The notes beneath the pieces were generated by a model. That model was given only the letters and a program-made list of their open reading frames with translations. It made no database searches and was not told the origin of the DNA. Source: an uncultured Thermoanaerobaculia bacterium (GTDB lineage: Bacteria; Acidobacteriota; Thermoanaerobaculia; Gp7-AA8). From it: a stretch of 64,000 bases of DNA. Positions 1 through 56,935 of this stretch are shown piece after piece (position 1 is the stretch's first letter; each line of letters begins with the position of its first letter). The translations under genes were made by a program, and so were the position numbers. The DNA is taken from positions 34,824 through 98,823 of the forward strand of contig CAZLGP010000232.1 of NCBI GenBank assembly GCA_964558905.1, read 5' to 3'.

Positions 1-1254
1 CGCGAAGGCGTGCCCGGTCCAGTGTTCCTCGAGCTGCCCATCGATCTTCTCTATGACGAGGCGCTCGTGCGGGAGTGGTTCGGCAAATCCGGCGGCGGCA
101 ACCGGCTCGTGCAGTGGTACCTGCGACGCTACCTGCGGCGCCTTTTCGCCGGTGAGGCGAGTCTGCCCTCGCCGCGAGATGTCGCCACCGACGCGCCGAG
201 CGACGCGCCCGTGCGCAACGTCTCCGAGCGCCTCGCGAGCGCCGAGCGTCCCGTGATCGTCGCCGGAAGTCAGGCCGCCTTGTCAGACGTTCCGCGTGCC
301 CTCGAGCAACTCGGTGTGCCGGTCTATCTCTCCGGCATGGCTCGCGGGCTGCTCGGCGCCGGGCATCCGCTGCAGATGCGGCATCGCCGGAAGAACGCAC
401 TGCGCGAGGCGGATCTGGTGATCCTCGCCGGCGTCCCGATGGACTTCCGTTTGAACTACGGACGCGACATCGGCTCGGGCGCCGTGTTGATCTCCTCCAA
501 CCGCAGCGCGGTCGATCTGAAGAAGAATCGCCGGCCCGACGTGGCGATTCATGCCGATCCGGGAGCATTCCTCCGTCGACTCGCGCAGGTGGCGACGACC
601 CGCGATCGCAGCGAGTGGATCTCCGTCCTGCGCCGCGCCGATGAAGAGCGCGAGCGCGAGATCGCTGCCAGCGCCGAGGAGCCGACCGAGCATCTCAATC
701 CGGTCGCGCTCTGCCGTGCGATCGAGCGGGCCATGGGTCCCGACAGCATCGTCGTCGCGGACGGCGGCGACTTCGTCTCCACCGCCTCCTACATCGTCCG
801 TCCGCGCGGGCCGCTGTCGTGGCTCGATCCCGGTCCGTTCGGCACCCTCGGCGTCGGCGCGGGTTTCGCGATCGGCGCCGGTGCCGCACGACCGGGGAGC
901 GAGTTGTGGATCCTCTACGGCGACGGTGCGCTCGGTTTCACGCTCGCCGACTTCGACACGCTCGCGCGGCACCGCATCGGCGCGATCGCAGTCGTCGCGA
1001 ACGACGCCTGCTGGTCGCAGATCCACCGCGAGCAGGTGGAAATCCTCGGCGACGACACCGCGTGCATGCTCACCCGCGCCGACTATCACCTCGCCGCCCA
1101 AGGCCTCGGCGGCCGCGGCCTGCTGCTGCAGGACGCATCCGCGATCGACGCTACGCTCGCCGAGGCGAAGCGCATCGCGGCCACGGGAGTGCCGGTGTTG
1201 GTGAACGCCTGGGTGGGGCGCACGGGGTTCAGGAAGGGCGCGATCTCGATGTAG
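1..1254 (+). CDS. Thiamine-diphosphate-dependent enzyme (acetolactate synthase / oxalyl-CoA decarboxylase-like), 5'-truncated by window edge
   Basis: ORF 10..1254 contains only central and C-terminal TPP domains, so the gene starts upstream of the window. TPP-binding region ILYGDGALGFTLADFDTLARHRIGAIAVVANDACW. Stop TAG 1252-1254 is also the first unit of the adjacent 9-mer array. Confidence 0.8.
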   Translation, partial: REGVPGPVFLELPIDLLYDEALVREWFGKSGGGNRLVQWYLRRYLRRLFAGEASLPSPRDVATDAPSDAPVRNVSERLASAERPVIVAGSQAALSDVPRALEQLGVPVYLSGMARGLLGAGHPLQMRHRRKNALREADLVILAGVPMDFRLNYGRDIGSGAVLISSNRSAVDLKKNRRPDVAIHADPGAFLRRLAQVATTRDRSEWISVLRRADEEREREIAASAEEPTEHLNPVALCRAIERAMGPDSIVVADGGDFVSTASYIVRPRGPLSWLDPGPFGTLGVGAGFAIGAGAARPGSELWILYGDGALGFTLADFDTLARHRIGAIAVVANDACWSQIHREQVEILGDDTACMLTRADYHLAAQGLGGRGLLLQDASAIDATLAEAKRIAATGVPVLVNAWVGRTGFRKGAISM

Positions 1255-1293
1255 GACGGATAGGACGGATAGGACGAATAGGACTCATAGGGA
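1252..1293. repeat. 9-mer tandem array A (TAGGACGGA-type, direct units only)
   Basis: Units TAGGACGGA TAGGACGGA TAGGACGAA TAGGACTCA TAGGGA. The first TAG is the stop of the TPP gene. The fourth unit carries the stop of the minus-strand four-helix-bundle gene. Confidence 0.85.
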
Positions 1294-1823
1294 GCGGTGA
1301 CGTTTTCTTTCGCGGGTCATTCGCTCGCGGATGCCGCCTTTCTCGAGAAACGCCTGCTCGAGATGACGGAGTTGTCGATCGAGCAGATAGTTCGCCTGGT
1401 GGATCAGGCAGATCGCGATGTTCGCGATGACATCAGCGGATCGTGTTTCGGCGAACGTGCCGAAGACCCCGTACGACTGCCCTCGGAGATCCCGAACGTA
1501 CTGCGCTTCTCGAGAGTCTTTGCTCCACTGCCTCAGGTTGCGGACGCGCAGGTAGCCTCGTAGTCCACCCGGAGCTCTTCGAGGCTGGCGCGCGCAACGC
1601 TCGTGAGCTTGATCTCCGTCTCGGTCGATGTTCCGGAGGCCTGGCTTGCCTCCGCGATGTTCTGCTTGCCGGAGCGGGCCGCCTGGATCATCTGGTCCAC
1701 GGTGCGGTCGCGTCTCTCGAGGAAGCGAGCGCAGAAGCGGACCGTGAGGTCATACACGATCTCTGCCTTCTTATACGAGATGAGCTTCCGGTAACCGCCG
1801 TGTCTTGGGATGAAACCGCTCAT
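1285..1823 (-). pseudogene. Four-helix-bundle suffix-domain protein (23S rRNA IVS protein-like family), frameshifted
   Basis: Track ORF 1533..2042 from Met74 (ATG 1823) reads GGYRKLISYKKAEIVYDLTVRFCARFL..DQMIQAARSGKQNIAEASQASGTSTETEIKLTSVARASLEEL. The expected family C-terminus (NIAICLIHQANYLLDRQLRHLEQAFLEKGGIRERMTRERK) continues in another frame down to a stop near 1285. This implies a 1-nt indel near 1553. Confidence 0.65.
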
Positions 1824-1874
1824 GCAGTCGAGACTACCTCGGATCGAGCGAGCGAAGCGTTTGGCTACAGGGGG

Positions 1875-1993
1875 TAGATGGGACGAATGGGACGGATGGG
1901 ACCCATGGGACCTATGCGACCCATGGGTAGCTACCATCCCATAGGTCCCATTCGTCCCATTCGTCCCATAGGTCCCATGGTCCCATTCGTCCC
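1875..1993. repeat. 9-mer inverted array B (hairpin)
   Basis: About six forward units (ATGGGACGA, ATGGGACGG, ATGGGACCC...), centre GGTAGC|TACC at ~1931, then about seven reverse-complement units (ATAGGTCCC, ATTCGTCCC...). Confidence 0.85.
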
Positions 1994-2008
1994 CGTGGTG
2001 GTGCTGGC

Positions 2009-2610: not shown

Positions 2611-3336
2611 TCATAGGCTCTGTCCCGCGTCGACCCGGAGGGTCTGGCCGGTGATGCGCCGGCCGCCGGCTCCGCACAGAAACACGACCGACGCGGCGAC
2701 GTCCTCGGGCTCGACGAGCTCGCCGAGAAGTGTTTCCGCGAGGGCTTGCTGGCGCACGGGCTCGGGATAGGTCTCGGTGAGTGGCGTGCGTACCCAGCCC
2801 GGCTCGATGACGTTGACGGTGATGCCGAGGCGACCGGTCTCGCGGCTGACGCTCTTGGCGAGGCCGAGCAGTCCGGCTTTGCTCGCGGCGTAGGCGGACG
2901 TGCCGAATTTTCCGCGGGAGCCGTTGATCGAGCCGATCAGGACGATGCGACCGCTTCCGGCCGCGCGCATCGCGGGGATCACGCTGCGCAGGAGCAGGAA
3001 CGCGCCGCGCAGGTTCACGTCGTGGACGAGGTCCCAATCGTCGACGGAGAGTTTCCAGACGACTCCGTCCCGCGAAACGCCCGCGGTGTGCACGGCGATG
3101 TCGATGCGGCCGTGCGCATCGAGCACCTGAGCTACAGCGCGCGCGACGGAGTCGGCGTCGCGAACGTCGCAGAAGACCGAGGATGGTTGACGGTTGGCGG
3201 TTGGCGGTTGGCGGGGGTCCACGACATCGAGGTTGACGACGGTCGCACCGGACGCGGTGAGTGCATCGAGGATTGCGCGGCCGATGCCGCCGCTGCCGCC
3301 GGTCACGACTGCGACGCGCCCGGCGAGATCGCTCAT
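2611..3336 (-). CDS. Short-chain dehydrogenase/reductase (FabG/BadH-like), translationally coupled to bcrD
   Basis: Track ORF 2611..3774 trimmed to MSDLAGR (ATG 3336; GGAG upstream; ATGA overlap with bcrD stop at 3333-3336). Motifs VTGGSGGIGRA, S..YAASKAG, NVIEPG. Residues 41-52 are encoded by a heptamer repeat. Confidence 0.85.
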   Translation of the reverse strand: MSDLAGRVAVVTGGSGGIGRAILDALTASGATVVNLDVVDPRQPPTANRQPSSVFCDVRDADSVARAVAQVLDAHGRIDIAVHTAGVSRDGVVWKLSVDDWDLVHDVNLRGAFLLLRSVIPAMRAAGSGRIVLIGSINGSRGKFGTSAYAASKAGLLGLAKSVSRETGRLGITVNVIEPGWVRTPLTETYPEPVRQQALAETLLGELVEPEDVAASVVFLCGAGGRRITGQTLRVDAGQSL

Positions 3337-4244
3337 GCGACGCTCCTCCGCGCCAGCACCTCGTGCCGATATGCGCCCCACAGCGCGGCGCCCAGGGCGC
3401 CGGCGTAGATCGCACGCGGATCGGTGACGATCTCCATCTGCAGCTTCTCCTCGGCCGCCTTCTCGCGCAGTGCCTTGGCCAGTCCCACGTCGGCGGAGAG
3501 CCCTCCCGTGATCGCTACCGTTCCCTCCGCGCCGATCGAGCGCAGCAGTTTGAGGTATCGCCCGGCCATCGAGAGGTGGATGCCCTTGAGGATGTCGTGC
3601 GTCTTGATGCCGCGGCTGACCATGTTGATCACGTCTGTCTCCGCGAGCACCGCGCAGATGCTGCTGACCATCTCCGGATCGGACGCGCTGCAGGACAGCG
3701 GCCCGATGTCCTCGAGGGTGATGCCGAGGTAGCGCGCAACGTTCTCGAGGAACTGTCCCGATCCCGACGCGCACTGACTGGTCATGCGGTACGCGAGGAC
3801 GCGGCTCTTGTCGTCCATCTTCAGCGCGCGTGCGTGCAGCGCACCGATGTCGAGCGCGGCGCGCGCGTCGGGCATGAGGAAGATCGCGCCGCGCGCATGC
3901 GTGGTCATCCCGTAGAAATGGCCGCGGCGAAACTCCACGAGCTCGCCCTCGCCGGTCGTTGCCAGATAGGCGACGTCGCTATTTTGAATTCCCGCGTCAG
4001 TGAGCGCGGCCTCCCACGATTCTTCGATGACCTTGCGCAGATCGCGGCGGCGGATGCGATCGGTGCGCATCGCGAGGACGTGGGTGTCATCCCGAGCGTC
4101 GAGCGAGGGACCTGGGTGGGTGGCGCGCGAGGCGCCTTCTTCGCGCCCCGCCAGCCCAGGTCCCTCGCTCATGCTCGGGATGACACGTGTGATGACAGTC
4201 TTTACGCTGCTCGAGCCGACGTCCATGCCCGCGGTGATGATCAT
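3333..4244 (-). CDS. bcrD: Benzoyl-CoA reductase subunit D-like (BcrAD_BadFG ATPase)
   Basis: Motifs MIITAGMDVGSSSVKTV, MTSQCASGSGQFLENVARYLG, AVLAETDVINMVSRG, GALGAALWGA. Last gene of bcrCBAD order. 4-nt overlaps with bcrA (4241-4244) and the SDR gene. Confidence 0.8.
   Translation of the reverse strand: MIITAGMDVGSSSVKTVITRVIPSMSEGPGLAGREEGASRATHPGPSLDARDDTHVLAMRTDRIRRRDLRKVIEESWEAALTDAGIQNSDVAYLATTGEGELVEFRRGHFYGMTTHARGAIFLMPDARAALDIGALHARALKMDDKSRVLAYRMTSQCASGSGQFLENVARYLGITLEDIGPLSCSASDPEMVSSICAVLAETDVINMVSRGIKTHDILKGIHLSMAGRYLKLLRSIGAEGTVAITGGLSADVGLAKALREKAAEEKLQMEIVTDPRAIYAGALGAALWGAYRHEVLARRSVA
4084..4185. repeat. REP-like palindromic element inserted in frame in bcrD
   Basis: 102 nt (34 codons). 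TGTCATCCCGAGC..GAGCGAGGGACCTGGG arm, ~38-nt loop, reverse-complement arm ending GCTCGGGATGACA. Encodes VIPSMSEGPGLAGREEGASRATHPGPSLDARDDT. Termini match the intergenic TGTCATCCTGAGC REPs at 18.9, 31.0 and 47.5 kb. Confidence 0.8.
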
Positions 4245-5563
4245 GCTGCCTTCCTCTCCGCCGCGCGACGCGCGAACAGCGCGGCGCCGAGGGCGCCGGT
4301 GTAGATGGAGTCCGCCGAGATATTGAGCGCGCGCTCGCCGTAGTTCTCGCGCACGAGCTCCTCGAGCGCGCCGACCGCCGCGGGGTTCTTGGCCACGCCG
4401 CCGGTGAAGGTGAACTGATCGTGGATGCCACCCGAGCGAGCGAGGAGCGACATCGCCCGCAGGATGATCGCGCGGTGCAGGCCGGCGAGGATGTCTTCGC
4501 GCTTCTGGCCGAGAGACAGCCGCTCGCGCAGTTCCGCGCCGGCGAACACGGTGCAGGTGCTGTTGATCTTGACGCGCGTGTGGCTCTCCTGCGCCAGCGG
4601 GCCGAGCTCGTGCAGGCCGAGGTTCATCTCGTCGGCGATGTATCCGAGGTAGCGGCCGCAGCCGGCGGCGCAGCGGTCGTTCATCTGGAAGCTCGTGACG
4701 ATACCCGCCGCATCGACCTGGATCGCCTTCGTGTCCTGGCCGCCGATGTCGAGCACCGTGCGCGTGCCGGGGAACATCGCGTGCGCGCCGAGTCCGTGGC
4801 AGAGGATCTCGCTGCGGATCTGTTCCTTGGGGAAGGGCAGCCGCGCGCGCCCGTAGCCTGTGCCGACGGTGCTGACTTCGACGAGCTCGGTCGCGCGAGC
4901 GCGCTCCACCGCCGCGCGCAGGCGCGCATCGCTCGACGTCTCATCGAGCGCGGCGCCGATGTGTTTCTGGAACGCGTTTTCGATCGTCAACGCCTCGACG
5001 GAGAGGATCGCCGCGTCGAAAACGCCGCAGAGCGCGTCGAAGCTGATGCCCTTCGGATCCGCCGCTGCTTCCGCGAGCAGCATGTAATCGGAGGAGGCGA
5101 GGTCGCGGAAGAAATCGCTCTTGCGCGTGGCTCCCGGCGCGAAATGCTGCCGTCCAAGCGCGGCCATGGAATCGCAGATCGTGTCGAGGATCGACCGCAG
5201 CTCCTGCGCGTGCGCGGCGTGCTTCGGACCGCCCGCGAGCATGAGCATCGCCTCGCGCAAGCGGTCCAGCTGCGCGAGGTGCTGGTGCATCTTGAAATTC
5301 CGCTCGAGGTCCGCGAGGGGATCAGTTGACAGTTGACCGTTCGCAGTTGGCAGGAGCTCCTGTCGACTGTCAACTGACAACTGCCGACTGATCATCGTGA
5401 ACCGCGTCCGGACGAACGCCTCCTCGCGCACGATCTGCGCGGCGACGTCGTAGTTGCTGCGGCTGTTCGTGATGCCGCGGCCGATCAGGTCGCCGTTGCC
5501 GTCGAGAACGACCGCCTTCGTCGTCGTGGAGCCGAGGTCGATGCCGAGGAAGACCTCCATCAC
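4241..5563 (-). CDS. bcrA: Benzoyl-CoA reductase subunit A-like (BcrAD_BadFG ATPase)
   Basis: Motifs FLGIDLGSTTTKAVVLD, VLDIGGQDTKAI, MNDRCAAGCGRYLGYIA, FTGGVAKNPA. 4-nt overlaps with bcrB and bcrD. Confidence 0.8.
   Translation of the reverse strand: MMEVFLGIDLGSTTTKAVVLDGNGDLIGRGITNSRSNYDVAAQIVREEAFVRTRFTMISRQLSVDSRQELLPTANGQLSTDPLADLERNFKMHQHLAQLDRLREAMLMLAGGPKHAAHAQELRSILDTICDSMAALGRQHFAPGATRKSDFFRDLASSDYMLLAEAAADPKGISFDALCGVFDAAILSVEALTIENAFQKHIGAALDETSSDARLRAAVERARATELVEVSTVGTGYGRARLPFPKEQIRSEILCHGLGAHAMFPGTRTVLDIGGQDTKAIQVDAAGIVTSFQMNDRCAAGCGRYLGYIADEMNLGLHELGPLAQESHTRVKINSTCTVFAGAELRERLSLGQKREDILAGLHRAIILRAMSLLARSGGIHDQFTFTGGVAKNPAAVGALEELVRENYGERALNISADSIYTGALGAALFARRAAERKAA
5321..5393. 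repeat. Inverted heptamer element inserted in frame in bcrA
   Basis: GATC-AGTTGAC-AGTTGAC-CGTTCGC-AGTTGGC-AGG / AGCTC / CCT-GTCGACT-GTCAACT-GACAACT-GCCGACT-GATC. Encodes ISRQLSVDSRQELLPTANGQLSTD. Confidence 0.8.
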
Positions 5564-6864: not shown

Positions 6865-6880
6865 GTTGGGTACGCCCCCG

Positions 6881-6986
6881 TAGGACGAATGGGACCTATA
6901 GGACGAATAGGACGAATAGGTAGCTGCCTATTCGTCCTATGGTCCTATTCGTCCTATTCGTCCTATTCGTCCTATTCGTCCTATAG
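6881..6986. repeat. 9-mer inverted array C (hairpin) inside the bcr operon
   Basis: TAGGACGAA TGGGACCTA TAGGACGAA TAGGACGAA, centre TAGGTAGCTGCCTA, then (TTCGTCCTA)x~6. Occupies almost the entire 133-nt bcrC-bcrB spacer. Confidence 0.9.
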
Positions 6987-6997
6987 ACTGAGATTCA

Positions 6998-8967: not shown

Positions 8968-9063
8968 CGCCGTTCAGGCGCGTCAGCACCGCCGTTCAGG
9001 CGCGTGTCAGCACCGCCGTTCAGGCGCGCCTCAGCATCGCGCCGTTCAGGTGCGTGTCAGCGT
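8968..9063. repeat. Four tandem ~24-nt repeats reiterating the 3' end and stop codon of oah
   Basis: Units CGCCGTTCAGGCGCG(TG)TCAGCAC at 8968, 8990, 9014 and 9038. The last unit contains the real oah stop (TCA on + at 9046-9048). Confidence 0.85.
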
Positions 9064-15755: not shown

Positions 15756-15767
15756 CTCCACACAACA

Positions 15768-15907
15768 GGGCGCAGGGGGCAGGGTGTTAAGTAGGGTCAG
15801 ACCTAGAATCTCTACTTGACGCGCCACGGCGGTGCGAGCGCGACAGGTGCGCGGCGTTAAGTAGAGATTCTAGGTCTGACCCTACTTAACACCTTGCCCC
15901 CTGCGCC
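15768..15907. repeat. 50-bp near-perfect inverted repeat (1 mismatch, ~40-nt spacer); REP/MITE-like, possible hup terminator
   Basis: GGGCGCAGGGGGCAGGGTGTTAAGTAGGGTCAGACCTAGAATCTCTACTT ... AAGTAGAGATTCTAGGTCTGACCCTACTTAACACCTTGCCCCCTGCGCCC. Confidence 0.85.
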
Positions 15908-15932
15908 CTGACTCACGTCCGGAGGTTTTCTC

Positions 15933-16470: not shown

Positions 16471-16554
16471 CGGTTGGCAGTTGACGGTTGGCGGTTGGCG
16501 GGAGACCGCAAGCGCCCGTCGTTCCACCGCCAACCGCAACCAGCAACCGCCAAC
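16471..16554. repeat. Heptamer inverted array H4
   Basis: CGGTTGG CAGTTGA CGGTTGG CGGTTGG CGG, 23-nt spacer, CCACCGCCAACCGCAACCAGCAACCGCCAAC. Starts 2 nt after the GNAT stop. Confidence 0.85.
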
Positions 16555-20033: not shown

Positions 20034-22631
20034 ATGAAAGATGTAGGGTACGCCATGAAAGACGGCCCGGTTGACGGAACGACCGGGCGAGCCAACGGTC
20101 GCCCGCATGGGCCCGATCCGCGCGGTCCTCGCGGTACCGCGGACGAGCGTGAACCGGGCTTGGGCCGTTGGCTGGGCAGGCGACGGGCGTCAGGGAAACG
20201 AACGCTCATTGCTGGATGGACGATCTGGCTCGCCTGGATGACCGTCCTTGCCAGCGGAAGCGCGCTCGCGGGGGAGTGCCCCAATGTGTTCTTTTATCCG
20301 CTCAGGAACGTCATCTATTCAGACTGCGAAGCTCGGTCCAGCGGGCAGCACTTTGTCTTCAGAATCGACAAGAGCGATTTCTTCTCGGGTGAGCTCGCCG
20401 CATCCGTTCTCGAGCCTTTTGAGCCTGCCGCGGGAGGGCCAATCCCGTATTTCACGCCCGTGTACTACGGGTTCTACGAGAGCACTACGGGCGATGCCTG
20501 CGCGCTGATCAGTTATCCGCTCAACGATGTCAGGGAAATAGTCGGGACATCGGGCCGCTACTATTGTCTCGTCGCCAGCGAATCGAATACCGCGGGAGGT
20601 CGCGAACAGCGGATCAGCGGGCAGTGGTTCATCGTCCCTGGGGCGGGAACCAATTGGGAAGGCATACGGATGACTGACTCGGCCATCCCCTGGTCCCTGA
20701 CCCTCGATTCCTCCGGCAGCGGGAGCGGCACCATTGGAGGCGCCGGCTCCTATGTCGTCGGCGAATCCATCAGCCTCACGGCGATCGCGGACAGCGGCAG
20801 CACCTTTACCGGCTGGAGTGGCGACGCCCCCTGTGCCGCCAGCTTCACGATGCCGGATGCAGACGTGAGCTGCACCGCGAACTTCACCCTCAATAGCCAC
20901 GCCGTTTCGACGAGCAGCGGAGGAACCGGCAGCGGCAGCACCGGTGGCGACGGGACGTACGTTTTCAATTCGACCGTCACGCTCACCGCCAGCCCGGCCA
21001 CCGGCAGCACCTTTACCGGTTGGAGCGGTCACCCGCTGTGTGCTCCCAGTTTCAGCATGCCCGACGAGGCGGTGAGCTGTACTGCAATCTTCACTCTGAA
21101 CAGCTACGCCATCACCACCACCGCGAGCCCGGCGGCGGGCGGCACGGTCGACTGCAGCCCGAACCCGGTGGATCATGGCAGTGAGAGCACCTGCACCCCC
21201 TCCGCGACCCTCGGCTACACCTTCGCCGGCTTCAGCGGCGACTGCAGCGGAACGACCTGCGTGTTGACGAATGTCACGGCCGACCGAAGCGTCACCGCGG
21301 ACTTCACCCTGAATAGCCACGCCGTTTCGACGAGCAGCGGAGGAACCGGTAGCGGCAGCACCGGTGGCGACGGGACCTACGACTTCGGTTCGACCGTCAC
21401 ACTCACCGCCAGCGCGGACACCGGCAGCACCTTTACCGGCTGGAGTGGCCACCCGCTCTGCGCCGCCAGCTTCAGCATGCCCGACGAGGCGGTGAGCTGT
21501 GTCGCAAGTTTTAGTGTGAACAGCTACGCCATCACCACCACCGCGAGCCCGGCCGCCGGCGGCACGGTCGATTGCAACCCGAACCCGGTGGATCATGGCA
21601 GTGAGAGCACCTGCACCGCCTCCGCGAACCTCGGCTACACCTTCGCCGGCTTCAGCGGCGACTGCAGCGGGACGACCTGCGTGTTGACGAATGTCACCGC
21701 GGACAGAAGCGTCAGCGCAGACTTCACCCTGAACAGTCATGCCGTTTCGACCAGCAGCGGAGGAACCGGCAGCGGCAGCACCGGTGGCGACGGGACCTAC
21801 GACTTCGGTTCGACCGTCACACTCACCGCCACCCCCGACATCGGCAGCACTTTCACCGAATGGAGCGGTCACCCGCTCTGTGCCGCCAGCTTCAGCATGC
21901 CCGACGAGGCGGTGAGCTGTGTCGCAATTTTTATTCTGAACAGCTACGCCATCACCACCACCGCGAGCCCGGCCGTCGGCGGCACGGTCGATTGCAGCCC
22001 GAACCCGGTGGAGCATGGCGGTGAGAGCACCTGCACGGCAACCGCCACACCGGGTGAAGGCTATGAGCTCGCAGGCTTCAGCGGTGACTGCTCGGGCCCG
22101 AATTGCAGCCTCGTGAGCATTACGTCGCCGCAGCATGTGACGGCACATTTTGATCCCGTGACCGAAATCGTTCTCGTCACTCGGGCCGGATCAGAAGCCT
22201 CGCTTTCGGTCAGTGGTCCGGGTTGCCGGATCGTCGAAGGGCAATTCGTTTCAGCCCCGAGTGGCGGACCGGCCAACGTGACGTTCCCATTCGGGTTGTT
22301 GGACTTCACGCTGAGAGGTTGTACCGGGGAAGCGGTGGTCACGGTGACCTATCCGACCGCGCTGCCTTCGGACGCCGGCTATTGGAAAGAAGCTGACGGT
22401 GTATTCAGTCCATACCCCGCCGACTTCAGCGGGAACAGTGTGACCTTCACTCTGGTGGACAACGGCTCGGGCGACAGCGACCCCACCGCCGGCACGATCC
22501 GGGATCCCAGTGGCGTCGGGTTTGTCTCCGCTTCGGCGATCACCTCGATCCCTCTGCTGTCTCCATGGAGCGCGCTCGCGTTGGCGCTCTTCATGGCCTT
22601 GATCGCCGGTTGGCGCATTGCCCACGCATAA
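20034..22631 (+). CDS. Large secreted repeat protein (InlB-B-repeat-like modules) with IPTL-CTERM-like C-terminal sorting signal; start uncertain
   Basis: Repeated modules ..GSTFTGWSG.P.CA.SF.MPD..VSC.A.F.LNS... Three near-identical ~420-nt DNA repeats (about 20886, 21306, 21726). C-terminus SIPLLSPWSALALALFMALIAGWRIAHA. Confidence 0.75.
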   Translation: MKDVGYAMKDGPVDGTTGRANGRPHGPDPRGPRGTADEREPGLGRWLGRRRASGKRTLIAGWTIWLAWMTVLASGSALAGECPNVFFYPLRNVIYSDCEARSSGQHFVFRIDKSDFFSGELAASVLEPFEPAAGGPIPYFTPVYYGFYESTTGDACALISYPLNDVREIVGTSGRYYCLVASESNTAGGREQRISGQWFIVPGAGTNWEGIRMTDSAIPWSLTLDSSGSGSGTIGGAGSYVVGESISLTAIADSGSTFTGWSGDAPCAASFTMPDADVSCTANFTLNSHAVSTSSGGTGSGSTGGDGTYVFNSTVTLTASPATGSTFTGWSGHPLCAPSFSMPDEAVSCTAIFTLNSYAITTTASPAAGGTVDCSPNPVDHGSESTCTPSATLGYTFAGFSGDCSGTTCVLTNVTADRSVTADFTLNSHAVSTSSGGTGSGSTGGDGTYDFGSTVTLTASADTGSTFTGWSGHPLCAASFSMPDEAVSCVASFSVNSYAITTTASPAAGGTVDCNPNPVDHGSESTCTASANLGYTFAGFSGDCSGTTCVLTNVTADRSVSADFTLNSHAVSTSSGGTGSGSTGGDGTYDFGSTVTLTATPDIGSTFTEWSGHPLCAASFSMPDEAVSCVAIFILNSYAITTTASPAVGGTVDCSPNPVEHGGESTCTATATPGEGYELAGFSGDCSGPNCSLVSITSPQHVTAHFDPVTEIVLVTRAGSEASLSVSGPGCRIVEGQFVSAPSGGPANVTFPFGLLDFTLRGCTGEAVVTVTYPTALPSDAGYWKEADGVFSPYPADFSGNSVTFTLVDNGSGDSDPTAGTIRDPSGVGFVSASAITSIPLLSPWSALALALFMALIAGWRIAHA

Positions 22632-23604: not shown

Positions 23605-24082
23605 CACGCGCGCGCACGAGATTTGTCCGCGGCTCATCGTCGCTCCTTTCTTCCGACGGCGCTCGAGAAATGCTTCCTAGCTCCACTCGGGTGATGTGCT
23701 GACGATCGAGCGCGATCTGAGTCTCCCCTCCCACGAAAGCGATTGCCGGCCAGTCGAGCTCCACCGGTCCGTCGTAGTACAGCGGTTCGAGGCGCGCTTC
23801 TACCTCCGCGAGGGCGACAATCGGCTGCTCGAACGGCTGGTGTGAGCGTGCCCGAAAAGACCCCAATCCCCGTTCGACAGAGGCAATGGCCTCTTCCTTC
23901 TCCATCGTGTCGCCGCCGACCATGTGCTCCTTCAGATACGCGACGATGGACTGGCACGCTCGGGCAGGACCGAGGCCCCACGCATCGGCGACAGCGGCAT
24001 GATTGGCCCGAACGATGCGATCGAAGACGGGCACGTTCGCAGTCCCTTTCTGGCTCTCAGTCGTCGATTGGCTCGACACCAA
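23531..24082 (-). CDS. Hypothetical protein downstream of arr (boundaries doubtful)
   Basis: 183-aa ORF with no recognisable motif. Its 5' end overlaps the arr stop by 26 nt and its 3' end overlaps the TonB-C pseudogene. The C-terminal third looks non-protein-like (RPPRTAHRQARHPTYRA). Confidence 0.3.
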   Translation of the reverse strand: MVSSQSTTESQKGTANVPVFDRIVRANHAAVADAWGLGPARACQSIVAYLKEHMVGGDTMEKEEAIASVERGLGSFRARSHQPFEQPIVALAEVEARLEPLYYDGPVELDWPAIAFVGGETQIALDRQHITRVELGSISRAPSEERSDDEPRTNLVRARAMESRTSRPPRTAHRQARHPTYRA

Positions 24083-24779
24083 GTCGGACGAGTCGCTCGA
24101 GGCCGTCCTTCATGGCTTTGAGCATCTCAGGCGAGTGTCCCTGCCAATCCGTGAGCTCGCCCGTGACCCGCAGCGGTTCTCGGGAGCGGTACGACTTCGT
24201 CGGATTCCCGCGGAACTTCTTGTCCGTCAGATTGGGGTCATCTTCGATCGGGCCGGTCGGTTCCACGGTGTAGATCCTGGCGGGACCTTCGCCGGCGGCC
24301 AACTCCGCTCCCCACGTGGCTGCATCCAGGGTGCGGGTCAGGTAGACGTAGGTCGTCGTCCTGTCCTGATTCCCGAAGTTCGGGGCATGGCCCGGCTTGA
24401 TCAGGTCTCCCGGCGCGAGGTCCGCCCGAGTGCCATGGTAGAAACGCCACTCCGTGACCTCGCCCGTGACCCGCAGCGGCTGCCGCGAGCGATAGGACAT
24501 CGTCGGATTCCGCGGAGAGTTGTCGTCCGTCAGGTCGGGGTCTCGTTCAATCGCGCCGGTCGGCGCCACGATGTAGACCCTGCCTGGGCCTTCGCCGACC
24601 GCCAGCTCTGCCGCCCAGATGGCCGCATCCGGATTAGGGGTCAGGTAGACGTAGGTCGTCAGCGAGTCCCGCTCAGCGCCGTCAGGGCGAGGGCCGGGCT
24701 CGATCAGCTCTCCCGGCTTCAGGTCGGCCCGTGTGCCATGGTAGAGCCGCTGTGACTTCAGGTCGTCTGTGGCCGCCAT
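24057..24779 (-). CDS. arr: Rifampin ADP-ribosyltransferase (Arr) family protein with tandemly duplicated catalytic domain
   Basis: Two consecutive Arr cores. Copy 1: YHGTRADLKPGELIEPG..TYVYLTPNPDAAIWAAELAVGEGPGRVYIVAPTGAIERDPDLTD..PRNPTMSYRSRQPLRVTGEVTEW. Copy 2: YHGTRADLAPGDLIKPG..TYVYLTRTLDAATWGAELAAGEGPARIYTVEPTGPIEDDPNLTDKKFRGNPTKSYRSREPLRVTGELTDWQGHSPE... Confidence 0.85.
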   Translation of the reverse strand: MAATDDLKSQRLYHGTRADLKPGELIEPGPRPDGAERDSLTTYVYLTPNPDAAIWAAELAVGEGPGRVYIVAPTGAIERDPDLTDDNSPRNPTMSYRSRQPLRVTGEVTEWRFYHGTRADLAPGDLIKPGHAPNFGNQDRTTTYVYLTRTLDAATWGAELAAGEGPARIYTVEPTGPIEDDPNLTDKKFRGNPTKSYRSREPLRVTGELTDWQGHSPEMLKAMKDGLERLVRLGVEPIDD

Positions 24780-24998
24780 CGGCTCGTCCTTTCATGCTGC
24801 GTGGCTTCCCTGCGGTGCGAGAGCGTCGGTCCTGGATGGGACGCGCGCCGCACGCACAACGACTTTCCGAGTCAGACCATCTGGTCAGCCGAACGAAGGA
24901 GGCCGCGCCTTAGTAAAGCCCCCACGCTCAGCCGTGAGAGCCGCACGGGAGAACGACGGCGCGGGCTGCGTCGGCTGCAAGCGCTTGTTGGACGGCGG

Positions 24999-25256
24999 TC
25001 ATGACGACATGATCCGGTCGTACTCAGCGTGAGTGCCGATCCAGCCCCAGAGAATCCCACCTTCCACATCTCTGCCGAGGGCGCGATAGTGGAGGCCGAT
25101 ACGAACGACCCAGTAGCCGCGGGCTTTCTTCAGCCGGAGAGAGGGATGGCGCGAATCTCTCTTGAGGAGGTCGTAGTTCGCTCGCGCGAGCCGTTGGATT
25201 TCGGTGGGGAGTTGATCGAACAACTCCCAGAAATCCGGACTCGTCAGGTGCTTCAA
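24999..25256 (-). CDS. RelE/ParE-family type II toxin
   Basis: Probable TTG start at 25256 overlapping the antitoxin stop (TTGA). Sequence LKHLTSPDFWELFDQLPTEIQRLARANYDLLKRDSRHPSLRLKKARGYWVVRIGLHYRALGRDVEGGILWGWIGTHAEYDRI. Confidence 0.7.
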   Translation of the reverse strand: MKHLTSPDFWELFDQLPTEIQRLARANYDLLKRDSRHPSLRLKKARGYWVVRIGLHYRALGRDVEGGILWGWIGTHAEYDRIMSS

Positions 25257-25465
25257 ATCGCGCGGCTCTTCCCTGCCTGGTGATCGGCAATCGATTTCTT
25301 GAAGAGTTTGTCCAGCTTGCCTGAGGCGGCGTCTCGCTCGATCTGGCGATCCCATTCTTCAGCGTCGAGCTCGAGCAGCCAGTCTCGCAATCTGGAGAAT
25401 TCTTCGGGCGAGAGCTTCTTGATCTCAGTTTCGATTTGTTCGAGCTTGGTCATCCTCTGCTCCAA
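25253..25465 (-). CDS. Putative antitoxin (addiction-module component)
   Basis: 70 aa, acidic, coiled. Sequence MTKLEQIETEIKKLSPEEFSRLRDWLLELDAEEWDRQIERDAASGKLDKLF. Directly upstream of and overlapping the toxin. Confidence 0.65.
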   Translation of the reverse strand: MEQRMTKLEQIETEIKKLSPEEFSRLRDWLLELDAEEWDRQIERDAASGKLDKLFKKSIADHQAGKSRAI

Positions 25466-25548
25466 CGGTCTACCGGAAAGGTCAATTGCGCCCGCCTGAC
25501 GCTCAGCCGCGGCAACCGTACACGATAGAGTAGCAGCCTACGAGAACG

Positions 25549-25849
25549 GTGGCGCGGTTGCCGGCGGCTGCAGCGGCCGAGTTGGCGCGCGAGTTTCTCG
25601 ATCTGACGCCCGGCGAGTCCGCGTTCGTGGAGATCAAGCTCGCCCTTGCACGACGGGTTCGGGAACTTCGGGAGGAGCACTGGACGCAGGCCGAGTTTGC
25701 GAGACGCGTTGGATCAGAGTCAGTCCAGAGTCGCGAAAACGGAAGCGGCCGATCCCCCAGTGAGCGTTGATCTACTCGTTCGATCGTTGCTCGCTGCAGG
25801 TGCCGATCGTCGCGAGCTCGGACGCGTCGTCGGCTCTCGGCGACGTTAA
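25549..25849 (+). pseudogene. XRE-family HTH antitoxin-like gene, frameshifted
   Basis: FLDLTPGESAFVEIKLALARRVRELREEHWTQAEFARRVG in one frame. SQSRVAKTEAADPPVSVDLLVRSLLAAGADRRELGRVVG follows in the next frame. Junction near 25715 splits the HTH. Confidence 0.55.
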
Positions 25850-25931
25850 CGGAGTGGTCGACGAGACCGTCGATCAACTACGAGTTGCAGGCCAAGCCGG
25901 CAACCTCGCCGCTTCACGGTCCGCGGCTGCA

Positions 25932-26570
25932 TCACTTGATACATACGGCGATGTCGTTCGCAATAGCCTGCTCGTCGTACACTGTCAGGCGCCGATCGAG
26001 TCGTTGTAGGGAGTAACTCAAGCGGCCTACGTGCAAGACGAGTGAGCGGAGATCGAGATCTTGAGGACGGCTACGGAGCCCCTCCCGGACGCGATCGTAC
26101 AGCCACTCCGCCTCGGCCGGCCCTGCCTGCCGCATGGCGCGATTGACGAGACGCTGAAGCGCGACCGCCGACGCCTCGTTGCTCGCATTCATGAGACTCG
26201 TCAGCCAAAGCAGAACCTTCTCCATGCGTCCAGCAGGGAAGGCGAAACACTCAAAATACCACTCTACCGTCCCGAATGTAGCCGGATCGCGGACCAATGC
26301 TGCCAACGTTGGTGAAGCCTCTGCGAATAACGCTTCGAGCGTTGGCACGAACCCGATCCGTTCGCTCCGTAACGCGGAGTCGAGCTCGTGCAACGCTGAG
26401 GTGGAGCGGCTTCGACCGAAAGTCCGAATCAGGCGGTGAATGCGATCGGCACGCTGCTCCCGATTCGCTGCCGCCGATCGTTCTTGGCGGACCCGAGCCC
26501 AGATATAGATCAGCGGTATGGCGACAAAGAACGCCAGCGCCACGAGAACGCAACCCATGTCTTCCGTCAT
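25932..26570 (-). CDS. Hypothetical protein with one N-terminal transmembrane helix
   Basis: N-terminus MTEDMGCVLVALAFFVAIPLIYIWARV. Remainder helical with no recognised motif. AAGG 7 nt upstream of the ATG. Confidence 0.5.
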   Translation of the reverse strand: MTEDMGCVLVALAFFVAIPLIYIWARVRQERSAAANREQRADRIHRLIRTFGRSRSTSALHELDSALRSERIGFVPTLEALFAEASPTLAALVRDPATFGTVEWYFECFAFPAGRMEKVLLWLTSLMNASNEASAVALQRLVNRAMRQAGPAEAEWLYDRVREGLRSRPQDLDLRSLVLHVGRLSYSLQRLDRRLTVYDEQAIANDIAVCIK

Positions 26571-27075
26571 GTGTCGACCTTACGCCGCGTTGCGCGGCCT
26601 TCTTTTACCTCGCACCCTATTTTGACACCGGCTCGCACAAAAAGAGGGGGCTCATGGTCGAGATCTTGCGGTTGGCCCGGCTACAGTAACGGACTAGCAC
26701 TCAGCCGCGCCAATCCGCACGGGTAAGTCTATCGCGCTTCGAACTCACGTGGCGCGGGTTGGCGACGGGCAGTGCAGAGCTAGACAGCGTGGCGCCGCCT
26801 ACGAGTCTCGCGGCCGGCTGAGATGTTTCCAACGACCAATCCTATGAGCCGCCTCGCGAACGATGTGCTCAGAGAGTTTCTTCCAGTCTCGCCCCGGGGG
26901 TCGGGCTGCCGACAAGACCTCCGTCGGCAAATTCACACGAACTGTTCGGTTCTATCCTGGACTCGATCTCGACGTGGGAATGCCCACGGTGATCGTGTCC
27001 CACTCGAGTTTCGCCGACGATGATTTAAGACGAAGACGCGCCGCATACGCTTCGGGTAGGCTGGCGGCAAGCTTC

Positions 27076-28071
27076 CTACGCCCGCCTCACAAGAGCTATT
27101 GCTCTGACCGCCGACGGCGCCAACGTGGCATCGATGCGGGCAGCGCCTGAGAATGTCTTTGTCTCGAGAGGATTGACCACCATGCCAGAGTGATCAATGT
27201 CCTTGTCGAGTTCGTGGCCATTGTTATCCAACACTCGACACTCGATGCGGTAGGCAGACGGTCCCCTGGAACGGTTCGTTATCTCCACCTGCCAGCCGAA
27301 GCGCCAGAAGGGCGTTTCAGGCTTCAACAGGCGACAGGTGAAGTTCTTTGCGGAGGTGGTCTCGGGTTCGGCGCATTCCACCACAGTTGACAGCCAGCCG
27401 CTGAGCGCCACTGAGGGCGGCGGATCTGATGCTGGTAAGGAGGGTGTAACCAGAGCGGCGGGAAGCGAGAAGTCGCCGGCCGACAGCCAGTCCGCTCCAG
27501 AGTCGTCTGCCTCGCAGCCGGCGAGTCGCAGACGATTCACGAGGTCCCTCCGTGTGGTGGCGGCATTGGATAGCCGAACAATATGGCGCCCGGCGTTGTC
27601 ACTGAACGGCTTCACGTGTCCCAGTTCAACAAACACCGTATTGTCCGGAGATCTGGCGAGAGCTAGGCCGGCTTCGAACAGGACGTTCGGGCGTGCCTGT
27701 GGCGATAAGTCGCGCTCGACCGGCGGTTCGGAAACACCCCACAGCGACGGAGAAAGCCGCACTTCATCGTCACCGGTCAACAGCACGACGACCGCCTGGG
27801 CCTCAGCGAACGCGGCGTCGAGGATCTCTGCGATCATCGGGGATGGCCTGCCGGTACGGGCGACGGCCTGCGTCCATTCGAGGGGGCGCAGGCTCACGCT
27901 ACGCAGGAATGCGAAGAGGGCGTCGCGCGCAGCGACGTTCCTTCCGTGAACCACGAATACTGTGTCCTTGCGTGGCAAGATTGCCCTCAATCTGTTTTCA
28001 GGACTATCAAATCCTGACCGGGCGGCTTCGCACAAGCCGCCGAACTCATTTCGGTCTCTCTCGAGCCCCAT
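27076..28071 (-). CDS. TIR-like domain protein (Cap12/PycTIR-type, PF10137-like) with uncharacterised C-terminal domain
   Basis: Strings TVFVVHGRNVAARDALFAFLRSVSLRPLEW, AQAVVVLLTGDDE, QARPNVLFEAGLAL (conserved F-E-x-G Glu), FSDNAGRHIVRL. Residues ~190-331 are unrecognised and beta-rich (FWRFGWQVEITNRSRGPSAYRIECRVLDNNGHEL). Confidence 0.75.
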   Translation of the reverse strand: MGLERDRNEFGGLCEAARSGFDSPENRLRAILPRKDTVFVVHGRNVAARDALFAFLRSVSLRPLEWTQAVARTGRPSPMIAEILDAAFAEAQAVVVLLTGDDEVRLSPSLWGVSEPPVERDLSPQARPNVLFEAGLALARSPDNTVFVELGHVKPFSDNAGRHIVRLSNAATTRRDLVNRLRLAGCEADDSGADWLSAGDFSLPAALVTPSLPASDPPPSVALSGWLSTVVECAEPETTSAKNFTCRLLKPETPFWRFGWQVEITNRSRGPSAYRIECRVLDNNGHELDKDIDHSGMVVNPLETKTFSGAARIDATLAPSAVRAIALVRRA

Positions 28072-28135
28072 CTACATGTAGATACAAGTCTATACCCGTA
28101 GATATCTACATCTACCGGTAGATATCTGCTGCCGC
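28072..28135. promoter_or_regulatory. AT-rich cluster of three TAGAT/ATCTA dyads abutting the TIR-like gene start (putative operator)
   Basis: TCTACATGTAGA (overlaps the ATG), GTAGATATCTAC (perfect 12-bp palindrome), GTAGATATCTGC. On the coding strand ...CTACATGTAGATGGGG gives an ATG-TAG mini-ORF fused to the start codon. No GGAG-type RBS is visible. Confidence 0.45.
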
Positions 28136-29577: not shown

Positions 29578-29800
29578 GCGGTTGGCGATTGGCGGTTGGC
29601 GGTTGGCGGAGATGAGGATGAGCGCCGCATCTGACCTGCTCGGCCGACCGGCTCCGCCACCCGCCAACCGCCAACCGGAGTCAGTGATGTACCAGGAGCC
29701 ACCTGCCGGCAGCGCGGATGTCTGGAAAACCGGAGAGGGATGCGCGCCGTACCTGACCTGCTCCGCCAACCGCCAACCGCCAACCGCCAACCGCCAACCG
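29578..29800. repeat. Heptamer inverted array H5 with tandemly duplicated right arm
   Basis: Left arm GCGGTTGGCGATTGGCGGTTGGCGGTTGGCGG at 29578-29609. Right arm CCGCCACCCGCCAACCGCCAACCGG at 29654-29678. Second right arm (CGCCAAC)x5 at 29763-29800. Confidence 0.85.
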
Positions 29801-29808
29801 GAGAATCG

Positions 29809-30996
29809 ATGTCAGTGATGTACCAGGAGCCACCTACCGCCAGCGCGGATGTTTATGCAAACCGGATCGGACGCACGCTCAACAGCGGGTTCGTCTCCCT
29901 GATGATCAGCATCGGTCACCGGACCCGTCTCTTCGACGTGATGGCGTCGCTGCCGCCGTCGACGAGCAACGCCGTCGCCGACGCGGCCGGCCTCACGGAG
30001 CGCTACGTGCGCGAGTGGCTGGCGGCGATGACGACGGCGCGCATCGTCCACTACGACGTCCGCACGGGGACGTACTTTCTGCCGATCGAATACGCGGCGG
30101 TGCTGGGCCGCGGAGCGGGCTCGGGCAATCTCGCGCCGGCCGCGCAGCTGCTGTCGATGCTGGCCGGCATCGAGGATAAGGTCGTGGCCGGATTCCACGG
30201 AGGCGGCGGCGTGATGCCGGAGGCATACGACCGGCTGCATGCGTTCCTCGCGGAAGAGAAGCATCTGCACATCGACGAGGAGTATGTGGAAGAGCTGCTC
30301 GAGCTGATGCCGGGGATGGACCTGCGTCTCGCCGCCGGCGCGTGCGTGCTGGACGCCGGGTGCGGCGACGGCGCGGTGCTGATGGTCCTGGCGCGGATGT
30401 TCCCCCGCTCCGCATTCCGCGGCTATGACATCTCACAGGCGGCGATCGACCGCGCGAACGAGCGCGTCGACGAGGCGGGCCTGCAGAACATCGATTTTGC
30501 CGTCGGCGACATGGCCTCGCTCGACGAGCCGCGCGCGTACGATCTGGTGCTGGCTCTGGAATCGATTCACGAACAGGCGTTCCCTCGTCTCGTCCTGAGC
30601 AACATCGCGAACGCACTCAAGCGCGACGGCGTGTTCCTGATGCAGGAGGTCGCCGCATCGAGCCATCTCGCGCGCAACGTGGAGAACCCGTTCGCGCCGA
30701 TGCTCTACGCGCTCTCGCTCCTCCACGCCGTCCCGGTCTCCCTCGCCCAGGACGGCGAAGCCCTCGGCCGCATGTGGGGCGAGGAGCGCGCCCGCCAGAT
30801 GCTGCAGGAGGCGGGATTCACGAAGACGCGGTTCGACGGGATCGCCGCGGATCCGCTGCGGTATTACTGCGTGGCCACGCGTCAATCTTCGTCTTCGTCA
30901 ATCCTGAGCGAGCGCAGCGAGTCGAAGGATCAGGTGAGCCCTCTCGCTGGACGTGCATCGGAGCGCTTTGCGAGAGGGCAGTCGCCAAAATCCTGA
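29809..30996 (+). CDS. Class I SAM-dependent methyltransferase with N-terminal winged-helix-like dimerisation region
   Basis: Start MSVMYQE (Met24 of track ORF). Motif I VLDAGCGDGAVLM, DLVLALESIHE. The last ~30 aa (ILSERSESKDQVSPLAGRASERFARGQSPKS) are encoded by REP units. Confidence 0.8.
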   Translation: MSVMYQEPPTASADVYANRIGRTLNSGFVSLMISIGHRTRLFDVMASLPPSTSNAVADAAGLTERYVREWLAAMTTARIVHYDVRTGTYFLPIEYAAVLGRGAGSGNLAPAAQLLSMLAGIEDKVVAGFHGGGGVMPEAYDRLHAFLAEEKHLHIDEEYVEELLELMPGMDLRLAAGACVLDAGCGDGAVLMVLARMFPRSAFRGYDISQAAIDRANERVDEAGLQNIDFAVGDMASLDEPRAYDLVLALESIHEQAFPRLVLSNIANALKRDGVFLMQEVAASSHLARNVENPFAPMLYALSLLHAVPVSLAQDGEALGRMWGEERARQMLQEAGFTKTRFDGIAADPLRYYCVATRQSSSSSILSERSESKDQVSPLAGRASERFARGQSPKS

Positions 30997-31194
30997 GTGA
31001 GCGAAGCGAGTCGAAGGATCAAGCGAGCCCTCACGGTTGGCGTGCATCGGAGCGCGCTGCGTGAGGGCAGTCGCCAAAATCCTGTGTGAGCGAAGCGAGT
31101 CGAAGGATCAACGGAGCCCTCACGCTGGACGTGCATCGGAGCGCTTTGCGAGAGGGCTCCCTTGATCCTTCGCCGCTGTGCGGCTCAGGATTTG
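30898..31194. repeat. Three tandem ~89-bp REP units plus a closing inverted half-unit
   Basis: Unit (A)ATCCTGAGCGAGCGCAGCGAGTCGAAGGATCA..GAGCCCTC..GCATCGGAGCGC..GAGGGCAGTCGCCAA at 30898, 30987 and 31076. Terminal CTTGATCCTTCGCC..GCTCAGGATTT is the inverted copy. Confidence 0.85.
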
Positions 31195-56922: not shown

Positions 56923-56935
56923 CCCCCTCCCCCCT

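Follow-up and report, generated by a model that had tools for sequence, protein, structure and literature searches.

A family of 9-bp tandem repeat arrays at gene ends and its linkage to a four-helix-bundle suffix gene

Arrays and a gene-bearing cassette in the 64-kb window

The whole stretch of DNA analysed, 64 kb in length, is referred to here as the window. The repeat unit was 9 bp long and consisted of a constant core, AT(A/G)GGAC, and two variable bases. The pattern TRGGACSRA was found 34 times in the window, against 2.91 expected and a largest count of 7 in shuffled sequences, and all matches but one fell inside six loci. Tandem Repeats Finder reported period-9 arrays at six of the six loci, where a preliminary description of this DNA had placed them, and a chain search found no seventh 9-mer locus in the window. 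According to the chain search, the GGAC-type arms had 4, 4, 4, 7, 3, and 6 units, and the GTCC-type arms had 6, 6, 8, 6, and 4 units. Because the units were contiguous, with no unique spacers between them, a CRISPR array was rejected. The features were as follows:

1252–1293, unstranded: 9-mer array of 4–5 TAGGACNNA units, which provides the gene-bearing element with the 3' strand of its outer stem
1285–1823, minus strand: four-helix-bundle suffix-domain gene, with TIGR04258 and TIGR02436/PF05635 matches
1828–1877, minus strand: cassette leader, two small hairpins upstream of the ATG
1875–1996, unstranded: 9-mer foldback that has GGTAGCTACC at its apex and follows closely on the stop of the acetyltransferase gene (2009–2011)
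6881–6986, unstranded: solo (gene-less) 9-mer foldback in the bcrC/bcrB spacer (6865–6997), with a perfect apical stem of 23 bp
34488–34643, unstranded: solo 9-mer foldback between convergent genes, with 7-bp helices and 2x2 GA/GA internal loops
53491–53626, unstranded: solo 9-mer foldback between divergent genes for a Cys/Met PLP enzyme and an ABC ATPase
56769–56923, unstranded: solo 9-mer foldback between convergent genes for a MacB/FtsX permease and a hemerythrin-domain protein

Each of the six loci was situated between protein-coding ORFs or at their ends, and no rRNA was present in the window. Inspection of the ORFs of the 64 kb revealed no gene for a transposase, an integrase, or a reverse transcriptase. 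As had been described, the TAG of a first unit served as the stop of the upstream gene at two loci: TAG 1252–1254 was the stop of a convergent TPP-enzyme gene, and in the 34488 array the terminal TAGs ended both ORFs (34488–34490 on the plus strand and 34642–34644 on the minus strand). The 56769 array began 2 nt past a stop, which was TGA. Its apex segment GAGACCGTTCCACCCATTCG was present twice, in agreement with the doubled hairpin centre noted earlier. The array at 53.5 kb had divergent genes on either side, again as described, and its stem continued into the flanking GGGGGCGA and TCGCCCCC. The GGTAGC/GCTACC-like centre was found at the apex of all five hairpin loci. The ends of the elements were fuzzy and consisted of a G-run, CGAT, and units of the (A/G)GGAC type. 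The 6881–6986 foldback was oriented so as to be transcribed on the minus strand within the bcr operon.

The array at 1252–1293 had been described as direct repeats only. It was not an orphan, as it paired with the outer units (1974–1996) of the 1937–1993 arm; the 1252 and 1875 arrays are parts of one element. In the 1875–1996 foldback, the inner units paired locally and the outer units 1974–1996 paired with 1256–1290 around the gene. When the minus-strand transcript (2000 to 1240) was folded, this outer stem was present in the MFE structure as well as in the centroid structure (z −8.1), and the gene, its leader, and the inner hairpin lay within it. The four-helix-bundle gene ended within the 1252–1293 array, at a minus-strand TGA (1285–1287). 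The gene was frameshifted near 1556 and is therefore probably a decaying copy. In the leader, the hairpin CCGAGGTAGTCTCG (1828–1842) held a GAGG Shine-Dalgarno sequence just before the ATG, and the second hairpin CTACCCCCTGTAG was located at 1863–1877. Both hairpins were conserved upstream of homologous genes elsewhere, in the order CTACC-N-GTAGC, CCGAGGTANCCTCGG with the Shine-Dalgarno sequence, and ATG. The region 1252–1996 is one cassette, composed of the outer stem, the inner hairpin, the leader, and the frameshifted gene.

The 9-mer elements had no match in Rfam at gathering scores; at E ≤ 1, the only matches were sub-threshold ones to miRNA-precursor hairpins of eukaryotes, long stems of a generic kind. 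A literature search yielded no description of the 9-mer family, of its TIGR04258 link, or of elements outside rRNA that resemble rRNA intervening sequences (IVS). That the family had not been recognised as a described one in the preliminary description was in line with both Rfam and the searchable literature. The 9-mer repeat family is real, non-random, and previously undescribed.

Folding of the arrays and comparison of gene junctions

Five of the six loci were inverted pairs, with an arm complementarity of 74–87%, and the long hairpins of the preliminary description were reproduced as very stable predicted folds. The RNA 6997 to 6865 had a predicted energy of −68.3 kcal/mol (z −9.25) and contained fully paired stretches of 23 bp or more; the DNA 34484–34646 had a z of −8.0; and the energies of the other hairpins were predicted at −63 to −124 kcal/mol. 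At 34488, the mismatches were regular 2x2 GA/GA loops separating 7-bp helices, one arm having GA throughout and the other TC, CC, or CT. The variable dinucleotide was common to paired units in 40% of cases, compared with 31 ± 2% for unrelated hairpins. The covariation of the two arms that had been claimed was thus a real excess, but as evidence of selection for pairing it was marginal. The strand test, which measured G-U versus A-C asymmetry as sense versus antisense fold energy, favoured the sense strand in 15 of 22 orientable hairpins and was not significant (p = 0.13). No U-tract or T-run followed the hairpins in the flanks of all window hairpins, and no terminator-like site was seen at 6881–6986; owing to the lack of a U-tract, an intrinsic terminator was rejected. 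Pairing exists and is strong in the window hairpins.

The minus-strand bcr operon of the window contained two HGD-D and two BcrAD_BadFG genes, and the bcr genes downstream of the bcrC/bcrB spacer overlapped by 4 nt. The preliminary description had placed the array in the spacer of an otherwise translationally coupled operon. The filled spacer and the downstream overlaps were present as described, but the upstream ECH1/ECH2 junction had another repeat insertion. In a survey of 86 related operons, the bcrC/bcrB junction was a 4-nt ATGA overlap in 65 operons and a short spacer or small overlap in 13, and the spacer was 89 nt or longer in 8 (133 nt in the window, 184 nt in L120–L122, 132 nt in L123–L125, and 89 nt in L158). 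Among the 86 operons, only the window had a 9-mer hairpin at this junction. The operons L120–L125 (BcrB identity 94–95%) had unrelated heptamer foldbacks there, (GTCAGTG)n/(CACTAAT)n or (GTGGTCA)n/(CACTGAC)n, and L119 (BcrB identity 95%) had no spacer. Homologues of BcrB with 95% identity were named as Thermoanaerobaculia (Acidobacteriota), which places the window in a relative of that group. The inserts of the window and of L120–L125 were flanked by ATGA at either end, and this could equally be a 4-bp target duplication or selection for the stop and start codons; no clean target-site duplication was seen at the other insertion sites examined.

A second, heptamer-based foldback family was also present in the window. 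In the operon of the window, a heptamer foldback was located at the SDR/acetyltransferase junction and a 24-mer tandem repeat at ECH1/ECH2, and the coding sequences of bcrA, bcrD, and SDR contained foldbacks.

Similar comparisons were made at other junctions. The convergent stops orthologous to the 34488 junction were 4 nt apart in L218 (TGA TCGA TCA), and L216 and L217 had other GC-rich palindromes at this position. The fatty-acid hydroxylase of the window ended in ...DVSR*, two residues short of the ...DVSRAA* of its orthologues; it stopped at the TAG of the element, so that each of the two ORFs now terminates at an element-borne TAG. Downstream of the acetyltransferase gene, a 9-mer hairpin was found only in the window and L123 had an ordinary hairpin, and L084 had an ordinary GC hairpin where L021 had a 9-mer hairpin. 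Of 61 ORFs ending near arrays at high-GC loci, 37 had TAG stops and 11 used the TAG of the first TAGGAC unit.

The arrays were located at gene ends and often supplied the stop, consistent with the placement reported earlier. Comparison of orthologous loci showed that they were derived, lying at junctions that were spacer-less in relatives (65 of 86 bcr operons; L218). On this comparison, the arrays are insertions at gene boundaries. Together with the gene-end placement, this supported the suggestion in the preliminary description of a mobile element targeting gene ends. The other suggestion made there, a structured RNA element, would be compatible with these observations.

Linkage to the suffix gene and distribution across phyla

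A profile search of all ORFs of the fetched loci found the four-helix-bundle suffix gene only beside arrays, namely in the window and in L060, L062, and L112, where the homologues directly abutted 9-mer arrays. Five more homologues (L206, L208, L209, L212, and L213) were picked blind to arrays, on the length of their contigs alone, and arrays lay within about 100 nt of the gene in five of five. Among these, L206, L208, and L209 had a full 9-mer hairpin upstream of the gene, L212 had an arm-gene-arm layout with 48 long-range pairs around the gene, and L213 had a small hairpin downstream. The Prevotella nigrescens copy had a TAGGAA-type hairpin just downstream of the gene. In total, all 10 genes examined, representing 9 independent sites, had arrays within about 100 nt; the linkage between the arrays and the TIGR04258/PF05635 gene family is tight. 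About 95% of arrays had no gene nearby, so that solo arrays far outnumbered genes, and no gene copy was seen in 24 array loci of one heavily colonised MAG.

The suffix protein had dN/dS values of 0.09–0.17, indicating purifying selection, and the suffix subfamily comprised 3,913 clusters at 50% identity. Nineteen of 270 family proteins ran into 3-residue periodic tails or linkers, compared with 0 of 240 controls. The model of a close homologue had a pLDDT of 83.6, and its top Foldseek matches were the S23p structures 2GSC and 2RLD; according to this predicted structure, the suffix protein has the S23p fold. A sequence search against solved structures gave no match, and PADLOC gave no meaningful match for a defence role. 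The S23p family is otherwise known from 23S rRNA intervening sequences and as the Avd protein of DGRs. To our knowledge, the four-helix bundle is not a known recombinase.

A cross-species scan with one genome per species, in which three consecutive units were required, found arrays at 118 or more loci. Coding arrays were removed with a Gly-periodicity filter, which replaced an ORF-span filter that failed in high-GC genomes because the arrays had no stops in five frames. Five collagen-like coding repeats were present among the matches listed (Paenibacillus, Magnetococcales, and others). The non-coding arrays among the matches listed came from Acidobacteriota (many of them Thermoanaerobaculia), Planctomycetota, Verrucomicrobiota, Lentisphaerota, and Chlamydiota, and further from Myxococcota, Chlorobiota, Armatimonadota, and others. 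The same architecture was found in more than 100 independent assemblies, including the complete chromosomes CP070717 and OY759675, and the isolates Stieleria sedimenti and Chlorobaculum sp. 24CR carried arrays.

By a strict criterion, the matches listed included 37 short-loop hairpins and 8 long-loop pairs, and the rest were one-directional. Among the matches listed, the Acidobacteriota arrays were hairpins with a GGAC-arm followed by a GTCC-arm, those of Planctomycetota were often loop-less palindromes with the arm order reversed, and those of Verrucomicrobiota were mostly direct and one-directional. The constant feature of the family is the tandem unit with the AT(A/G)GGAC core, and not the hairpin. 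No true array was found in 506 kb of relatives' DNA, compared with six loci in the 64 kb of the window; the density of arrays is lineage-specific.

Of 120 viral pattern matches, 109 were collagen-like GXY coding repeats, and only two viral loci resembled true arrays. No viral contig encoding the four-helix-bundle suffix protein was found, and a phage vector was rejected on these two grounds. Plasmids gave one match only, in Prevotella.

Relation to known systems and interpretation of the arrays

Intervening sequences with an S23p ORF occur in the 23S rRNA of Leptospira, Coxiella, Xanthomonas, and Brucella, at helix 9, 25, or 45. In the Coxiella IVS, RNase III cuts the terminal stem, the S23p ORF is in the loop, and tandem, copy-number-variable GACAGAT heptamers lie at the cut site (PMC4990558). 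The unit variant TAGGACAGATA of L021 and L060 includes the string GACAGAT. Like an IVS, the gene-bearing elements had terminal inverted repeats forming a long stem around an S23p/PF05635 ORF (window 1252–1996 and L212), the ORF was often decaying, and the distribution was sporadic and horizontal-looking. Unlike IVS, the 9-mer copies were never in an rRNA gene and lay between protein-coding genes or, occasionally, at their ends, their stems were composed wholly of phased 9-mers, and the protein had an extra TIGR04258 suffix domain. Most copies were also gene-less, such as the four solo copies of the window, which consisted of a stem and a short loop. Among the known systems, the rRNA IVS came nearest in design, and location was the ground on which membership was rejected.

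In style, the nearest known repeats were the heptamer inverted pairs of Xanthomonas and the TAACTGA repeats. The arrays shared several features with heptamer simple-sequence repeats (GGGAATC of Xanthomonas, STRR/GGGGAYT of cyanobacteria, and TAACTGA of Beggiatoaceae), namely intergenic short tandem units near start or stop codons, variable copy number, and a cross-phylum distribution with no known vector (PMC4692102, PMC4679880). The Xanthomonas repeats include 70–75 convergent/inverted pairs per genome that are able to form stem-loops, and the intergenic heptamer repeats studied by Rehm et al. form G-quadruplexes (G4) in vitro (PMC4692102). However, the 9-mer family had a unit of 9 nt and of other sequence, was linked to one gene family, and was inserted at spacer-less junctions, and G4 formation was not its common denominator.

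REP/REPIN elements and MITEs (Correia, RPE, and RAYT-mobilised REPs) are likewise abundant, lineage-specific intergenic palindromes downstream of genes, with some copies in coding regions, presence/absence polymorphism, and presumed mobilisation in trans (PMC3733652). The 9-mer elements had neither a GTAG nor a CGTC tag, and their stems were 40–70 bp of tandem units, compared with a unique palindrome of 20–40 bp in REPs. Membership in REP/REPIN was rejected on the missing tag and on arms of 30–70 nt made of tandem 9-mers. No RAYT, TIRYT, or IS parent was present among the ORFs of the window. The 9-mer foldbacks had terminal inverted repeats, as MITEs do, but the sole gene found between or beside the arms was the four-helix-bundle suffix gene and not a transposase. 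The Drosophila Foldback (FB) element has long inverted terminal repeats made of short tandem repeats, and many of its copies have no internal coding region. As FB is eukaryotic, kilobase-scale, and unrelated in sequence and machinery, the likeness is an analogy only.

In our main reading, which we hold with about even confidence, most of the arrays are copies, without the gene, of a mobile four-helix-bundle cassette of the IVS type, and this cassette colonises gene ends. On this reading, the 6881, 34488, 53503, and 56769 arrays are solo derivatives that have no gene, much like MITEs or solo LTRs. Upon read-through from a neighbouring gene, the arms would fold into an imperfect RNA duplex of 40–70 bp, and by analogy with rRNA intervening sequences this duplex is probably a substrate of RNase III. 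The bcr mRNA would then be cut between bcrC and bcrB, replacing translational coupling, and each half would keep a protective terminal stem. Cleavage of a gene-bearing copy would likewise free the mRNA of the cassette itself. Because the Verrucomicrobiota arrays are mostly one-directional, the hairpin, and with it RNase III, cannot explain everything. The 7-nt core is conserved even where a hairpin is absent, and therefore the units are probably also binding sites of a sequence-specific partner; conservation of the core without an inverted arm points to sequence recognition rather than to pairing alone. The candidate binder of (TAGGACGAA)n DNA or RNA is the cassette's own protein, and the four-helix-bundle suffix protein may act in trans on solo copies.

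A wider and rather doubtful proposal is that the suffix protein and the phased 9-mer arrays form a new type of self-contained mobile system that has no classical transposase, the free-living form of the rRNA IVS. The protein would read the AT(A/G)GGAC units, and host enzymes (RNase III, and perhaps a polymerase or reverse transcriptase) would spread gene-bearing and gene-less copies to gene ends across phyla.

The arrays could instead be host-selected 3'-end barriers, terminators, or insulators that arose locally by repeat expansion and inverted duplication and not by transposition. Most copies are located right after stops or between convergent genes, the folds are very stable, and the unrelated GC-rich hairpins of the relatives L084, L123, L216, and L217 at the same positions would fit a general demand for some hairpin there. 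Unit numbers also differed between orthologues (the heptamer hairpin was 3F/5R in the window and 4F/4R in L119), and arrays promote local duplications. However, the hairpins lacked a U-tract throughout and nothing terminator-like was seen at 6881–6986, a spacer of 4 nt suffices in L218, one copy interrupts an operon that shows translational coupling in 65 of 86 relatives, and another lies in a divergent promoter region. Covariation was weak and strand asymmetry not significant, and a local origin leaves unexplained the 7-nt core shared by many phyla and the linkage to the gene in 10 of 10 cases. We consider this explanation unlikely. It is also improbable, in our view, that the arrays are non-mobile, phased DNA or RNA sites, putatively for the suffix protein or a host factor, acting as a regulatory or sequestering array like the CsrB decoys, with the hairpin being incidental. 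Such sites would account for the AT(A/G)GGAC core conserved across phyla beside two bases that drift and barely covary, for the arrays without an inverted arm that are common in Verrucomicrobiota, and for the close association with a conserved protein that evolves under purifying selection. Avd and S23p, which are related proteins, form oligomers, and Avd binds nucleic acid. On the other hand, binding by itself does not explain the insertion polymorphism at junctions or the vast excess of solo arrays over genes, and the sites would be buried within long duplexes.

Two further explanations carried far less weight. In runs of TGGGACGAA, at least four G3 tracts are separated by 6-nt loops, as at 34497–34550, and intergenic heptamer repeats, including inverted pairs, form G4 in vitro (PMC4692102). 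Even so, it is very unlikely that the arrays are G4-forming simple-sequence repeats like the GGGAATC heptamers of Xanthomonas and the GGGGA(C/T)T heptamers of Nostoc. TAGGAC, which has only GG, is as common as TGGGAC and dominates the 1252, 6881, and 53503 arrays, the unit in Prevotella is TAGGAA, and the complementary arm would compete through duplex formation. An assembly artefact or chance is extremely improbable. Tandem and inverted repeats can be mis-assembled from short reads, and the contigs that carry the family gene are in many cases short. Against this stand the 34 matches versus 2.9 expected, an orthologous foldback conserved between the window and L119, and the architecture shared by more than 100 independent assemblies, with complete chromosomes and isolate genomes among them.

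The main reading, in which the arrays are mostly gene-less copies of an IVS-type cassette, bears on the rRNA IVS and the S23p/four-helix-bundle family, the origin and function of which have been open for more than 30 years. Should the link to the gene be borne out, the family would provide hundreds of copies outside rRNA for which matching empty sites exist, together with a conserved cis motif, and the cultured carriers Stieleria sedimenti, Chlorobaculum sp. 24CR, and Prevotella nigrescens would be available. The mechanism of mobility, processing by RNase III, and the binding specificity of the protein would then become directly testable. For the genomes that carry them, the TAG stops supplied by the elements change the C-termini of neighbouring proteins, and the arrays, which are open in five of the six reading frames, lead to spurious or extended ORF calls. 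The insertions disrupt translational coupling in catabolic operons such as bcr.

Foldback repeats in the bcr operon

Comparison with the related bcr operons showed that in L120-L125 (loci from close relatives, BcrB identity 94-95%) the bcrC|bcrB junction carried foldbacks, (GTCAGTG)n/(CACTAAT)n or (GTGGTCA)n/(CACTGAC)n, whose heptamer units were unrelated to the 9-mers and which lay at the exact position of the 9-mer hairpin of the window. Because the same junction held a 9-mer array in the window and heptamer foldbacks in L120-L125, the ATGA overlap at bcrC|bcrB was struck independently by two repeat families.

Further repeats were located inside or between genes of the operon.

Repeats inside or between bcr-operon genes (window positions)
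3185-3214: heptamer-coded 12-residue in-frame insertion, SDR gene
4084-4187: palindrome of ~100 nt, GTGTCATCCCGAGCG...CGCTCGGGATGACAC, 5' part of the bcrD ORF
5323-5383: heptamer hairpin, within the bcrA coding region
8968-9061: 24-nt unit × 3.9, junction of two enoyl-CoA hydratase genes

The hairpin in bcrA coded for a variable loop, common to the related operon L119 and different in L120 and L123; the SDR insertion was not present in L119. The 24-nt array occupied the whole junction, each unit containing a small CGCC-GTTCA-GGCG hairpin, and this junction was a 4-nt overlap in L120.

Heptamer foldbacks and other repeats of the window

Tandem-heptamer foldbacks formed a second foldback family in the window, likewise occupying intergenic spacers, with the units GGTTGGC/GCCAACC, CTGGCAA, CGGTTGC, and CGGTAGC. 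The L119 ortholog of the foldback at 2501-2607 differed in its unit numbers (4F/4R, against 3F/5R in the window); the foldback was missing in L120 and L123, where the junction was 9 nt.

Other features of the window (window positions)
2501-2607: heptamer foldback family
16471-16554: heptamer foldback family
29578-29800: heptamer foldback family
38829-38852: heptamer foldback family
42295-42540: heptamer foldback family
57784-58193: heptamer foldback family
15766-15910: long inverted repeat of other sequence (57-nt arms, 96% complementarity)
44536-44933: long inverted repeat of other sequence (69-nt arms, 260 nt apart)
20873-22036: InlB B-repeat protein, large in-frame coding repeat (420 nt × 2.8)
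60193-61251: DUF11/DUF7507 surface protein, large in-frame coding repeat (414 nt × 2.6)
30900-31157: 89-nt unit × 2.9, intergenic (31 kb)
Within 24000-28100: Arr (rifampin ADP-ribosyltransferase) domain, tandem duplication (303-nt repeat)
24999-25355: ParE-like toxin ORF
27076-28071: TIR-domain ORF, CAP12/Pycsar effector type

The 89-nt unit had a ATCCTGAGCGAGCGAAGCGAG...GGAT motif that looked similar to the 4084-4187 palindrome. The stretch at 24000-28100, which was lower in GC, resembles an islet of defence or resistance genes.

Alongside arrays, the neighbouring end of a gene was duplicated in tandem: at window 29650-29830, the array and the start of the downstream gene were duplicated, and at 4020-4740 of L114, a locus from another genome, the 9-mer array was triplicated along with a transporter gene's 3' end.

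9-mer arrays outside the window

The arrays of L103 (500-830) and L071 (4300-4660), two MAGs (one Myxococcales, one deltaproteobacterium), shared a conserved centre of ~105 nt that included TTGACT...GCTAGGCA and was flanked by 9-mer arms, and are a distinct long-loop subfamily.

Collagen-like Gly-X-Y coding repeats (GPIGPI...) also matched the search pattern of three consecutive 9-mer units, in L038, L076, L117, and 109 of the 120 viral loci (L219 onward), the false positives coming from Paenibacillus and Magnetococcales as well as from many viral contigs; a census of the 9-mer family therefore requires a filter against them.

Five proteins of the four-helix-bundle suffix family (P0400, P0430, P0441, P0448, and P0504) had 3-residue (xSD)n repeats in the linker that joins the bundle to the suffix domain. 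Since these repeats were encoded by 9-nt units with a GGAC end, 9-mer arrays of this kind also occur within the four-helix-bundle suffix gene itself.
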